Position numbers and translations under genes: made by a program. A DNA stretch of 64,000 nt from NCBI RefSeq assembly GCF_054482525.1, contig NZ_CM137006.1. One strand, given 5' to 3'. Shown one piece after another: positions 5,835 to 51,143 of this stretch; position 1 is the first letter of the stretch; each line of letters begins with the position of its first letter. The notes below the pieces were generated by a model. The model was not told where the DNA came from. It ran no database searches and saw only the letters and a list, made by a program, of their open reading frames with translations.

Positions 5835-6749
5835 ATGAGCTGGATTGAACGAATTAAAAGCAACATTACTCCCACCCGCAAGGCGAGCATTCCTGAAGGG
5901 GTGTGGACTAAGTGTGATAGCTGCGGTCAGGTTTTATACCGCGCTGAGCTGGAACGTAATCTTGAGGTCTGTCCGAAGTGTGACCATCACATGCGTATGA
6001 CAGCGCGTAATCGCCTGCATAGCCTGTTAGATGAAGGAAGCCTTGTGGAGCTGGGTAGCGAGCTTGAGCCGAAAGATGTGCTGAAGTTTCGTGACTCCAA
6101 GAAGTATAAAGACCGTCTGGCATCTGCGCAGAAAGAAACCGGCGAAAAAGATGCGCTGGTGGTGATGAAAGGCACCCTGTATGGAATGCCAGTTGTCGCT
6201 GCGGCATTCGAGTTCGCCTTTATGGGCGGTTCCATGGGGTCTGTGGTAGGTGCACGTTTCGTGCGTGCCGTTGAGCAGGCGCTGGAAGATAACTGCCCAC
6301 TGATCTGCTTCTCCGCCTCTGGTGGCGCACGTATGCAGGAAGCACTGATGTCGCTGATGCAGATGGCGAAAACCTCTGCGGCGCTGGCAAAAATGCAGGA
6401 GCGCGGCTTGCCGTACATCTCCGTGCTGACCGACCCGACCATGGGTGGTGTTTCTGCAAGTTTCGCCATGCTGGGCGATCTCAACATCGCTGAACCGAAA
6501 GCGTTAATCGGCTTTGCCGGTCCGCGTGTTATCGAACAGACCGTTCGCGAAAAACTGCCGCCAGGATTCCAGCGCAGTGAATTCCTGATCGAGAAGGGCG
6601 CGATCGACATGATCGTCCGTCGTCCGGAAATGCGCCTGAAACTGGCGAGTATTCTGGCGAAGTTGATGAATCTGCCAGCGCCGAATCCTGAAGCGCCGCG
6701 TGAAGGCGTAGTGGTGCCACCGGTACCAGATCAGGAACCTGAGGCCTGA
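5835..6749 (+). CDS. accD: Acetyl-CoA carboxylase carboxyltransferase beta subunit
   Basis: 304 aa from ATG 5835 (MSWIERIK...); Zn-finger CxxC..CxxC (CDSCGQ...CPKCDHH); track ORF begins at an upstream in-frame start at 5751 that I did not adopt. Confidence 0.95.
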
Positions 6750-6818: not shown

Positions 6819-8087
6819 ATGATTATCAAACGCACTCCTCAAGCCGCGTCGCCTCTGGCTTCGTGGCTTTCTTATCTGGAAAACCTGCACAGTAAAACTA
6901 TCGATCTCGGCCTTGAGCGCGTGAGCCAGGTCGCGGCGCGTCTTGGCATTCTGAAACCAGCGCCATTTGTGTTTACCGTTGCGGGTACGAATGGCAAAGG
7001 CACCACCTGCCGTACGCTGGAGTCGATTCTGATGGCGGCAGGGTACAAAGTGGGCGTCTACAGTTCGCCGCATCTGGTGCGTTATACCGAGCGCGTACGT
7101 GTGCAGGGCCAGGAATTGCCGGAATCGGCCCACACCGCCTCTTTTGCGGAGATTGAATCGGCACGCGGTGATATTTCCCTGACCTATTTCGAGTACGGTA
7201 CGCTGTCGGCGTTGTGGCTGTTCAAACAGGCACAACTTGACGTGGTGATTCTGGAAGTAGGGCTGGGCGGTCGTCTGGACGCAACCAATATTGTCGATGC
7301 CGATGTTGCGGTAGTAACCAGCATTGCGCTGGATCATACCGACTGGCTGGGGCCAGATCGCGAAAGCATTGGTCGCGAGAAAGCAGGCATCTTCCGCAGC
7401 GAAAAACCGGCAATTGTTGGTGAGCCGGAAATGCCTTCTACCATTGCTGATGTGGCGCAGGAAAAAAGTGCACTGTTACAACGTCGGGGCGTTGAGTGGA
7501 ACTATTCCGTCACCGATCATGACTGGGCGTTTAGCGATGCTCACGGCACGCTGGAAAATCTGCCGTTGCCGCTTGTCCCGCAACCGAATGCCGCAACGGC
7601 GCTGGCGGCACTGCGTGCCAGCGGGCTGGAGGTCAGTGAAAATGCCATTCGCGACGGGATTGCCAGCGCAATTTTGCCGGGACGTTTCCAGATTGTGAGC
7701 GAGTCACCACGCGTTATTTTTGATGTCGCGCATAATCCACATGCGGCGGAATATCTCACCGGGCGTATGAAAGCGCTACCGAAAAACGGGCGCGTACTGG
7801 CGGTTATCGGTATGCTACATGATAAAGATATTGCCGGAACTCTGGCCTGGTTGAAAAGCGTGGTTGATGACTGGTATTGTGCGCCACTGGAAGGGCCGCG
7901 CGGTGCCACGGCAGAACAACTGCTTGAGCATTTGGGTAACGGCAAATCATTTGATAGCGTGGCGCAGGCATGGGATGCCGCAATGGCGGACGCTAAAGCG
8001 GAAGATACCGTGCTGGTGTGTGGTTCGTTCCACACGGTCGCACATGTCATGGAAGTGATTGACGCGAGGAGAAGCGGTGGCAAGTAA
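6819..8087 (+). CDS. folC: Bifunctional folylpolyglutamate synthase / dihydrofolate synthase
   Basis: 422 aa; P-loop GTNGKGTT; recognised FolC sequence. Confidence 0.95.
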   Translation: MIIKRTPQAASPLASWLSYLENLHSKTIDLGLERVSQVAARLGILKPAPFVFTVAGTNGKGTTCRTLESILMAAGYKVGVYSSPHLVRYTERVRVQGQELPESAHTASFAEIESARGDISLTYFEYGTLSALWLFKQAQLDVVILEVGLGGRLDATNIVDADVAVVTSIALDHTDWLGPDRESIGREKAGIFRSEKPAIVGEPEMPSTIADVAQEKSALLQRRGVEWNYSVTDHDWAFSDAHGTLENLPLPLVPQPNAATALAALRASGLEVSENAIRDGIASAILPGRFQIVSESPRVIFDVAHNPHAAEYLTGRMKALPKNGRVLAVIGMLHDKDIAGTLAWLKSVVDDWYCAPLEGPRGATAEQLLEHLGNGKSFDSVAQAWDAAMADAKAEDTVLVCGSFHTVAHVMEVIDARRSGGK

Positions 8088-48302: not shown

Positions 48303-49760
48303 ATGACAATAACTCCACAAAACCTGATCGCACTGCTACCGTTGCTGATCGTCGGCTTGACGGTGGTGGTTGTGATGCTCTCCATTGCGTGGCGACGCAA
48401 TCATTTCCTCAACGCTACGCTCTCGGTTATTGGGCTTAACGCGGCGCTGGTTTCGCTCTGGTTTGTCGGCCAGGCGGGCGCTATGGACGTTACGCCACTG
48501 ATGCGCGTTGATGGTTTCGCCATGCTTTACACCGGGCTGGTATTGTTGGCGAGCCTCGCCACCTGTACTTTCGCCTACCCGTGGCTTGAAGGCTATAACG
48601 ACAACAAGGACGAGTTCTACCTGTTGGTGTTAATTGCCGCGCTGGGCGGGATCCTGCTGGCGAATGCCAACCATCTGGCGTCTCTGTTCCTCGGTATCGA
48701 ACTGATCTCTTTGCCGCTGTTTGGCCTGGTCGGTTACGCTTTCCGCCAGAAACGTTCGCTGGAAGCCAGTATCAAATACACCATTCTCTCTGCCGCAGCG
48801 TCTTCTTTCCTGCTGTTTGGTATGGCGCTGGTGTATGCGCAGTCTGGCGACCTGTCGTTTGTCGCGCTGGGTAAAAACCTCGGCGACGGTATGCTCAACG
48901 AGCCGCTGTTGCTGGCAGGTTTCGGACTGATGATTGTTGGCCTCGGCTTCAAACTCTCTCTGGTGCCGTTCCACCTCTGGACGCCAGACGTATACCAGGG
49001 CGCGCCTGCGCCGGTTTCCACTTTCCTGGCGACGGCGAGCAAAATCGCTATCTTCGGTGTGGTGATGCGTCTGTTCCTCTACGCACCGGTGGGTGACAGC
49101 GAAGCGATTCGCGTGGTGCTGGCGATTATCGCCTTTGCCTCCATCATCTTCGGTAACCTGATGGCGCTGAGCCAGACCAATATCAAACGTCTGCTCGGTT
49201 ACTCATCTATCTCTCACCTCGGCTATCTGCTGGTGGCGCTGATTGCGCTGCAAACTGGCGAGATGTCGATGGAAGCGGTAGGGGTTTACCTGGCCGGTTA
49301 TCTGTTCAGCAGCCTAGGCGCGTTCGGCGTGGTCAGCCTGATGTCCAGCCCGTATCGTGGCCCGGATGCTGATTCCCTGTTCTCTTACCGCGGTCTGTTC
49401 TGGCATCGTCCGATCCTCGCGGCGGTGATGACGGTGATGATGCTGTCTCTGGCCGGTATCCCGATGACGCTGGGCTTTATCGGTAAGTTCTACGTGCTGG
49501 CGGTCGGTGTCCAGGCACACCTGTGGTGGCTGGTGGGTGCCGTGGTTGTCGGTTCGGCAATCGGCCTCTACTACTACCTGCGCGTGGCGGTGAGCCTGTA
49601 TCTTCACGCCCCGGAACAACCGGGTCGCGATGCACCATCAAACTGGCAGTACAGCGCGGGCGGTATCGTGGTGCTGATCTCTGCACTGTTGGTACTGGTG
49701 CTGGGTGTATGGCCACAACCGCTGATTAGCATTGTGCGGTTAGCCATGCCGCTGATGTAA
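48303..49760 (+). CDS. nuoN: NADH:quinone oxidoreductase subunit N (antiporter-like)
   Basis: 485 aa; last gene of operon, followed by an intrinsic terminator. Confidence 0.95.
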
Positions 49761-49783
49761 GCTGTCAGTTCGTAAGTCAGAAA

Positions 49784-49811
49784 GCCGCCGACATGTTCGG
49801 CGGTTTTTTTT
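49784..49811 (+). terminator. Intrinsic terminator of the nuo operon
   Basis: CCGCCGA-CATGT-TCGGCGG followed by T8 (49804-49811), 25 nt after the nuoN stop. Confidence 0.8.
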
Positions 49812-50523
49812 GTGCACAGAAAACCCCCAGCTAGGCTGGGGGTTCCGGAAAGCTTTCAGCTTTAAGCCAGTTATTAAAACCCCTTTTGATTTGTTAAAAC
49901 ACCTTGCGGTCTGGCAACTGCAAGTGTCAAACAAGAAATCAAAAGGGGGTCCCAATGGGGAACGAAAAGAGCTTAGCGCACACCCGATGGAACTGTAAAT
50001 ATCACATAGTTTTTGCGCCAAAATACCGAAGACAGGTGTTCTACAGAGAGAAGCGTAGAGCAATAGGCAGTATTTTGAGAAAGCTGTGTGAGTGGAAAAG
50101 TGTACGGATTCTGGAAGCTGAATGCTGTGCAGATCATATCCATATGCTTGTGGAGATCCCGCCCAAAATGAGCGTATCCGGCTTTATGGGATATCTGAAA
50201 GGGAAAAGCAGTCTGATGCTTTACGAGCAGTTTGGTGATTTGAAATTCAAATACAGGAACAGGGAGTTCTGGTGCAGAGGGTACTACGTCGATACGGTGG
50301 GTAAGAACACGGCGAAGATACAGGATTACATAAAGCACCAGCTTGAAGAGGATAAAATGGGAGAGCAGTTATCGATTCCCTATCCGGGCAGCCCGTTTAC
50401 GGGCCGTAAGTAACGAAGTTGGATGCAAATGTCAGATCGTGTGCGCCTGTTAGGGCGCGGCTGGTAAGAGAGCCTTATAGGCGCATTTGAAAAACCTCCG
50501 GCTATGCCGGAGGATATTTATTG
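49812..50523 (+). mobile_element. IS200-like insertion sequence (IS200/IS605 family), about 0.7 kb; boundaries approximate (+/- 15 bp)
   Basis: Single 152-aa TnpA ORF of the HUH/Y1 type; subterminal hairpins at both ends (49824-49842 CCCCCAGC-TAG-GCTGGGGG; 50495-50513 CCTCCGG-CTATG-CCGGAGG); no terminal inverted repeats, as expected for this family; size matches IS200. Confidence 0.75.
49955..50413 (+). CDS. tnpA: IS200 transposase TnpA (HUH single-strand DNA transposase)
   Basis: 152 aa from ATG 49955 (MGNEKSLAHTRWNCKYHIVFAPKYRR...); HuH motif in ADHIHMLVEIPP; conserved Tyr in the C-terminal part; track ORF begins at an upstream in-frame start at 49904. Confidence 0.9.
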   Translation: MGNEKSLAHTRWNCKYHIVFAPKYRRQVFYREKRRAIGSILRKLCEWKSVRILEAECCADHIHMLVEIPPKMSVSGFMGYLKGKSSLMLYEQFGDLKFKYRNREFWCRGYYVDTVGKNTAKIQDYIKHQLEEDKMGEQLSIPYPGSPFTGRK

Positions 50524-50537
50524 GTGCCCTGACCCCA

Positions 50538-51041
50538 TCACCCAACAATAACCGTCAGCGCATGATTCCCTTGTCGCAGCATACGTCGATACGCACTAAT
50601 CAGCTTTTCCATATCAAGCATGATCGAAGCAAAGAGTTGCCCCTCTAACTCTTCTGAAAAAGTCACACCAGGGTAAATCTCCATTTCATTGAGTCGTTTA
50701 ATGGAAAACTGTTTACGCAGCTCACTTCGATCCAGAGCTTCCAGTCGGTCGATTGTCGCGGCTAACTCCTGATTCCAGGTCAATCCCAGGAAGCCATCTA
50801 TGCCATCTTCGAGGTTGTGTTCACCAAGCACGGCACGACTCAGCGGATCATTCTTCGCGGGATCAAAAGCAGAGGTGCCTGTCAGGCCAAAATGTAAAAA
50901 ATCCCAGCGTTTATCAATATCCAGTCGGTGTAATCCTGAAAGCGTGTCATGAATATTGTCCATTAAGGGTTTTTCAGTAGACTCAAGCAGTTGGTTAATC
51001 TTTTCTGAGTCAATTTCTGCAAAATAGCCAATCATTCCCAT
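50538..51041 (-). CDS. yfbM: Uncharacterised protein YfbM (DUF1877)
   Basis: 167 aa; recognised YfbM sequence (MGMIGYFAEIDSEKINQLLE...). Confidence 0.88.
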   Translation of the reverse strand: MGMIGYFAEIDSEKINQLLESTEKPLMDNIHDTLSGLHRLDIDKRWDFLHFGLTGTSAFDPAKNDPLSRAVLGEHNLEDGIDGFLGLTWNQELAATIDRLEALDRSELRKQFSIKRLNEMEIYPGVTFSEELEGQLFASIMLDMEKLISAYRRMLRQGNHALTVIVG

Positions 51042-51143
51042 TTTATTTTCCTCCGTTGAATTTCATGTTTCGCATCTTAAAACAGACGAGGGAAAATAAA
51101 ATGTACATGTCGCTTTTTCTGGACTCGCCTCGAGAAATTTTTA

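Follow-up and report, generated by a model that had tools for sequence, protein, structure and literature searches.

The locus between nuoN and yfbM raises the question of why a block of three genes known from Escherichia coli K-12 is missing beside a core respiratory operon, and whether the insertion sequence found in its place had any part in this. The window analysed here is a stretch of 64,000 nucleotides from contig NZ_CM137006.1 (assembly GCF_054482525.1). Its nuoN (48303..49760, plus strand), the last gene of the nuo operon, is an ORF of 485 amino acids with 100% identity to nuoN of strain PCN033 and 98.7% to that of K-12. Convergent with it lies yfbM (50538..51041, minus strand; Pfam DUF1877, E = 1.5e-35), which is 100% identical to the PCN033 gene and 96.0% identical to that of K-12. 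A preliminary description had put the gap between them at 777 bp, and with nuoN ending at 49760 and yfbM at 50538 it measures exactly that (49761..50537). The description had also stated correctly that yfbP, yfbO and yfbN separate nuoN from yfbM in K-12 MG1655, where the order is yfbM-yfbN-yfbO-yfbP-nuoN and the interval spans 2,610 bp.

Comparison of the window with K-12 by blastn showed homology ending within the terminator of nuoN, in its T-run at 49808, and restarting at 50537, beside the yfbM stop codon. The K-12 region b2273-b2275 thus has the same two flanks as the window, being bounded by the nuoN terminator and the yfbM stop codon, whereas the 2.56 kb it holds is wholly lacking in the window, which has the majority 66-bp allele. 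The absence of yfbN-yfbO-yfbP was confirmed by a tblastn search for remnants with YfbN, YfbO and YfbP over the whole 64 kb, which gave chance-level matches only, none better than E = 0.13. A blastn search of the same 64 kb with the K-12 islet at word size 7 likewise stayed at chance level (E > 0.1) beyond the 47-bp nuoN terminator.

Literature searches on the function of YfbN, YfbO and YfbP returned nothing specific. YfbN has a weak UBA-like Pfam match just below threshold (21.4 bits against a cutoff of 21.8), and YfbP a weak, sub-threshold TPR match. A role in a defence system was considered for YfbN, YfbO, YfbP, YfbK, YfbL and YfbM and rejected, with no PADLOC match and nothing from Pfam except these UBA-like and TPR matches. 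The gene for YfbN (K-12 locus L001, 9711-10427) shares its variable patch of the chromosome with the deubiquitinase gene elaD, which may be coincidence.

The 777-bp gap of the window is made up of the nuoN terminator, a 711-bp IS200C element and 15 bp; the terminator and the IS200-like element named in the preliminary description were both found, and the 15 bp are in addition. The intrinsic terminator of nuoN (about 49779..49811, plus strand) comprises an A-tract, a GC hairpin and eight T residues (AAAGCCGCCGA-CATGT-TCGGCGG-T8). It was overlooked by a simple terminator scan and confirmed by RNA folding (-18.6 kcal/mol, z-score -4.7), and it is kept in K-12, E. whittamii and E. fergusonii. The 15 bp on the yfbM side (GGTGCCCTGACCCCA, 50523..50537) are a leftover of an ancestral 66-bp spacer and are the same in the empty sites of PCN033 and 2012C-4221. 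The interval can therefore be read with considerable confidence as a widespread empty nuoN-yfbM allele, in which the nuoN terminator is the sole feature of a 66-bp spacer, plus one recent IS200C. In the empty allele, one terminator is common to the convergent nuoN and yfbM.

The distribution of this allele was surveyed in 5,426 complete E. coli genomes with a synthetic query that joined 200 bp of either flank to represent the empty site, scored when matched as one piece. An empty site with no insert was present in 4,214 genomes (78%), where the true spacer is 66 bp. The K-12-type islet, at a coverage of at least 80%, was found in 946 (17%), a count probably inflated by the many K-12 laboratory derivatives, and a divergent islet (60-90% identity) in about 27. 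IS200 lay between nuoN and yfbM in 100 genomes, counted in one orientation, so that insertions in the opposite orientation would escape this figure. Carriers of the empty allele include O157:H7, O111:H8, O145, ST131 (phylogroup B2), PCN033 (phylogroup D) and members of phylogroup E and, outside E. coli, E. whittamii and SCPM-O-B-8794. A strain-specific deletion, as first suggested, is not compatible with an allele held by 78% of complete E. coli genomes across B2, D, E and O111/O145, and by E. whittamii as well. The view of the site as a variable accessory hotspot next to the core nuo operon has held up, with at least five states seen: empty; IS200; yfbP-O-N; yfbO-N; and an unrelated 409-aa gene followed by yfbO-N. 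Whether a strain has yfbNOP is an ordinary polymorphism of the accessory genome, visible in RefSeq annotation and known in kind.

As to how the empty allele arose, sequence comparison favours, with fair probability, an old loss of an ancestral yfbN-containing block, a loss that has since become the majority state, over a recent gain in K-12. Homologues of YfbN are found almost exclusively in Escherichia, and wherever the context is readable yfbN comes directly after nuoN in the same orientation. A search of species-representative genomes for the outgroup state yielded four loci, the E. albertii contig ending 14 bp past yfbM. In E. fergusonii, nuoN is followed by yfbN, a 191-aa ORF, yfbM and yfbK (YfbN 71% identical to K-12 in amino acids), and in Escherichia sp. 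E2748 by an unrelated 409-aa gene, yfbO, yfbN, yfbM and yfbL (YfbN 87%). Read from the yfbM side, Escherichia sp. MOD1-EC7003 has yfbM, an intact 191-aa ORF and yfbN, inside which the locus ends (95.8% nucleotide identity). E. coli A21 has yfbO and yfbN only (85% nucleotide identity to K-12 over the islet). Further afield, a Klebsiella contig carries a yfbN-like gene and then rbn after nuoN, and another enterobacterial contig a yfbN-like gene, two small ORFs, a yfbL-like and a yfbK-like gene, both yfbN-like products being 46% identical to K-12 YfbN in amino acids. These two genes lie at 7001-7738 of locus L129 and 6001-6726 of locus L131, and the content of the nuoN-rbn gap varies between genera.

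The K-12 islet itself shows signs of age. Its 272-bp yfbN-yfbM gap (2387456-2387712; locus L001, 9457-9713) is a frameshifted, 5'-truncated remnant of the 191-aa gene, which is intact in E. fergusonii (locus L126, 7712-8287) and MOD1-EC7003 (locus L007, 6656-7228) and frameshifted and truncated in both K-12 and A21. The position of yfbN after nuoN in the outgroups, together with this decayed gene in K-12, indicates that the islet is old and eroding. Since the empty allele is shared by E. whittamii and SCPM-O-B-8794, both alleles are old. The absence of yfbNOP would long predate IS200C and most likely reflects an old deletion of the ancestral yfbN-containing block.

The opposite polarity, in which the empty spacer is ancestral, the K-12-type and other carriers gained yfbN/O/P horizontally and the window lineage lost nothing, is possible but distinctly less likely. 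It would account for the empty allele in 78% of E. coli, in E. whittamii and in SCPM-O-B-8794, for the G+C content of the islet (39.9%, against 57% for nuoN), for cargo beside nuoN that differs between lineages, and for the rarity of the yfbN-like gene in Klebsiella, where the protein forms a 90%-identity cluster of its own and two contigs were found to carry it. It is harder to reconcile with yfbN occupying the same place and orientation in E. fergusonii, the cryptic Escherichia clades and two other enterobacterial contigs, and with a divergence of yfbN that scales with distance (87, 71 and 46% amino acid identity). The decayed gene that K-12 and A21 hold in their islet, intact in outgroups, speaks for age and erosion, and no mobility genes or repeats were found at the islet borders. 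The earlier suggestion that K-12 carries an insertion therefore stands only in part: K-12 is indeed in the minority state and its islet is low in G+C, whereas yfbN in the outgroups and the decayed 191-aa gene mark that islet as old. The low G+C, the rare Klebsiella homologue and the varying nuoN-proximal cargo are also compatible with repeated gain at a hotspot. Only the nuoN-proximal slot looks like a position for swapped-in cargo: it holds YfbP in K-12, the 409-aa protein in E2748 (locus L137, 4088-5317) and nothing in A21 (locus L016, 3424-3500) or E. fergusonii (locus L126, 6859-7000). YfbP and the E2748 protein were unrelated on comparison.

Two further features of the site were considered. 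The yfbM alleles of K-12 and A21 share 98.6% identity, against about 96% with those of empty genomes; a linkage of the yfbM allele to the islet was rejected, given that ST131 (empty) and A21 (islet) share one YfbM protein accession. In E. whittamii, which has the empty allele, and in A21 and E. fergusonii, the T-run is followed by the motif ATGGTG, and E. fergusonii has ATTGTG close to yfbM. Such microhomology would be suggestive of deletion ends, and is too short to serve as evidence.

The variability extends beyond yfbM. The nuoN-rbn region is an old, slowly eroding variable patch, in which yfbN, yfbO, yfbP, yfbK, the 191-aa ORF and elaD vary across Escherichia. Relative to K-12, the window has also lost yfbK, at 52375-52431 between yfbL (51144..52115) and elaD (52530..53729); what is left of the gene is about 132 nt from its start and 40 nt from its end, with an internal deletion of about 1.56 kb. 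In contrast to the absence of yfbNOP, that of yfbK is clearly due to deletion. Of the 5,426 E. coli genomes, 2,513 contain the stretch that is missing here, which makes this a common polymorphism. The elaD of the window (52530-53729) is a 399-aa ORF, and its DNA is 100% identical to the PCN033 locus, where the RefSeq annotation calls elaD a frameshifted pseudogene; a frameshift in elaD is also flagged in several other strains, and ST131 lacks the gene. The yfbM-yfbL block (50538-52374) is unusually divergent, with 92.3% identity to K-12 over the whole stretch against 98.5% for nuoN. Between Escherichia species, yfbL is only 80-83% identical and nuoN at least 96%.

The element that occupies the empty allele in the window is IS200C (49812..50522, plus strand; 711 bp, GTGCACAG...GGATATTTATT), with ends that are ambiguous by up to 3 nt owing to T/G identity with the flank. 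It shows no differences over 711 bp from active-looking IS200C copies at htpX-yebQ and flhC-motA of other strains, and RefSeq labels such copies "IS200/IS605-like element IS200C". At its left end lies a hairpin (49822..49844, plus strand; fold -18.7 kcal/mol) that equals nucleotides 12-34 of IS200 (PMC4513863). This hairpin has been described as a bidirectional terminator that blocks read-through into tnpA (PMC4513863, PMC5435999). The tnpA 5' UTR / STnc490 (art200) region (49822..49945, plus strand) is matched at full length by Rfam RF01405 with 146 bits, against a gathering score of 56. The STnc490 model scores these 146 bits on the plus, tnpA-sense strand and only 23 bits on the minus strand at 49822-49945, which differs from the description of art200/STnc490 as antisense to the tnpA 5' UTR (Ellis et al., 2015; PMC4513863). 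An intact tnpA follows (49955..50413, plus strand), encoding a Y1 (HUH) transposase of 152 amino acids (Pfam Y1_Tnp, E = 3.8e-38) with the HUH motif H61-I62-H63 and Tyr125 (IQDYIKHQ) in its translation. The right-end hairpin (50495..50513, plus strand) gives a terminator-like match on both strands, with folds of -15.9 and -17.8 kcal/mol. Neither of the two ends (GTGCACAG... and ...TTTATT) is an inverted copy of the other; terminal inverted repeats are absent, and subterminal hairpins are present at both ends.

These parts agree with the anatomy of IS200 given by Ellis et al. (2015; PMC4513863). The Y1 HUH transposase, the end hairpins, the lack of a target-site duplication and the STnc490 region place the element in the IS200 group of the IS200/IS605 family. 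Structurally it is the same as IS200 of Salmonella and IS200C of E. coli, matching them in its 711 bp, its single 152-aa Y1 HUH transposase, the left-end terminator hairpin, STnc490/art200, the right-end hairpin, and the lack of both inverted repeats and target duplication. What is new is the copy at nuoN, which the closest relatives do not have. The element of the window is thus a plain member of the IS200 group, and its presence a new insertion of a known element.

The closest relatives, PCN033 (phylogroup D), SCU-102 and 19KM1776, have flanks 100% identical to those of the window; on the nuo side this identity spans about 20 kb in all three, and on the yfbM side it spans 5.5 kb in PCN033. 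Otherwise identical, they lack IS200C and carry an intact 66-bp spacer, GGCGG-T8-GGTGCCCTGACCCCA-TCA. The window equals this spacer plus exactly 711 bp between the T8 of the terminator and the GG of GGTGCC, with no target duplication and no loss. Because relatives with identical flanks are empty and their spacer is intact, IS200C is best explained as a recent, clean insertion into an already empty site. It would alternatively have to be supposed that IS200C was present in the ancestor of the clone and was precisely excised in PCN033, SCU-102 and 19KM1776, the window being the older state. This is improbable: excision of IS200/IS605 elements is seamless, and an excised site would look never occupied, but the element would have to have been excised from each of the three relatives sampled, or from an ancestor common to them, and its sequence is identical to that of copies at other loci, as would be expected of a new insertion. 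That IS200 activity itself deleted yfbN/O/P here, by adjacent deletion or by recombination between IS copies, was suggested at the outset by an IS in the exact place where these genes would be, and is so unlikely as to be ruled out by the near-isogenic empty sites of PCN033, SCU-102 and 19KM1776, which have neither IS nor genes, by IS flanks that rebuild the 66-bp spacer base for base, by 4,214 genomes that lack yfbNOP with no IS at the site, and by the precise excision and insertion of IS200/IS605 elements (PMC5027513).

The recent insertion of IS200C is probably neutral or nearly so, judging from the sequence, because no gene is cut, the nuoN terminator is retained and transcripts of yfbM would now meet the right-end hairpin of the IS followed by T5. 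On the minus strand this hairpin is followed by TTTTT, and it could thereby terminate yfbM transcripts.

The nuoN terminator is a recurrent target. Five IS-bearing genomes showed the junctions T8|IS|GG, T8|IS|TTGG and T7|IS|TTTGG; the same five carry three IS variants (0, 4-5 and 20 differences over 711 bp), and their flanks differ from one another. Three junction types, three IS variants and differing flanks together indicate that this terminator was struck several times independently, in one orientation. Other IS200C copies lie directly after the terminators of htpX and flhC, where the empty sites of K-12 have runs of T7 and T8. Metagenome contigs were scanned by exact match to the left end of IS200C, which gave 75 distinct insertion sites. 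A stable hairpin with a T-rich tail stood immediately 5' of the IS in 70 of the 75 (93%), against 1% of random positions and 26% of random TT[T/A]TT sites. The last five flank bases 5' of the IS read TT(T/a)TT, with T invariant at -1 and -2 across the 75 sites. Among the 64 sites with a perfect stem, 61 had the foot of the hairpin 5-10 nt away from the point of insertion; the corresponding spacing is 8 nt at nuoN and 9 nt for the right end of IS200C itself. That IS200C copies are nearly always found behind intrinsic terminators explains the repeated independent insertion at the nuoN site. This near-absolute placement, which in the window concerns positions 49804-49819 and 50514-50524, is probably real, and quite possibly already described; no explicit mention of a terminator preference of IS200 or IS1541 was found in the searchable literature, and older subscription papers or ISfinder/TnPedia may have one. 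The position of IS1541 between pheL and pheA in Yersinia agrees with such a preference (PMC3082878).

By its family membership, IS200C would have transposed as a single strand, in the "peel and paste" manner of IS200/IS605. It would have landed on the 3' side of a T-rich sequence (TTNTT) that serves as target at the base of the terminator hairpin, with the T-tract on its top strand. By analogy with IS608, the AAAA 5' of each IS hairpin may act as a guide for the T-rich cleavage or target site, and a terminator would then resemble the right end of IS200C. A more speculative extension, offered tentatively, is that IS200C could be a dedicated "terminator-homing" element. The host terminator (A-tract, GC hairpin, T-tail of 5-10 nt) would mimic the right end of the IS (AAAAA, hairpin, ATATTTATT), and TnpA with its AAAA guide would insert the circle, in single-stranded form, where the T-tail ends.

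Group IIC introns reportedly insert after intrinsic terminators as well, an observation attributed to Robart, Seo and Zimmerly in 2007. Like IS200C, they lie immediately downstream of the hairpin and T-tract of a terminator, in a single orientation and in gene-free DNA, and in both cases such placement limits harm to the host. The likeness is one of target choice only, given that these introns employ a ribozyme and reverse transcriptase, in contrast to the HUH single-strand DNA transposase of IS200C.

The finding at nuoN-yfbM by itself matters little. It does correct a view of the locus centred on K-12, which is the exception here; the lack of yfbNOP in other E. coli should not be flagged as a deletion. 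The window, set beside the empty site of the PCN033 type, provides a clean natural example of IS200C insertion. The placement of IS200C behind terminators would, if not already described, be useful for the annotation of IS elements and for understanding the target choice of Y1 transposases. Terminator homing, if true, would explain the harmlessness of IS200, the repeated independent insertions at the nuoN terminator and the fact that the element carries a terminator of its own.
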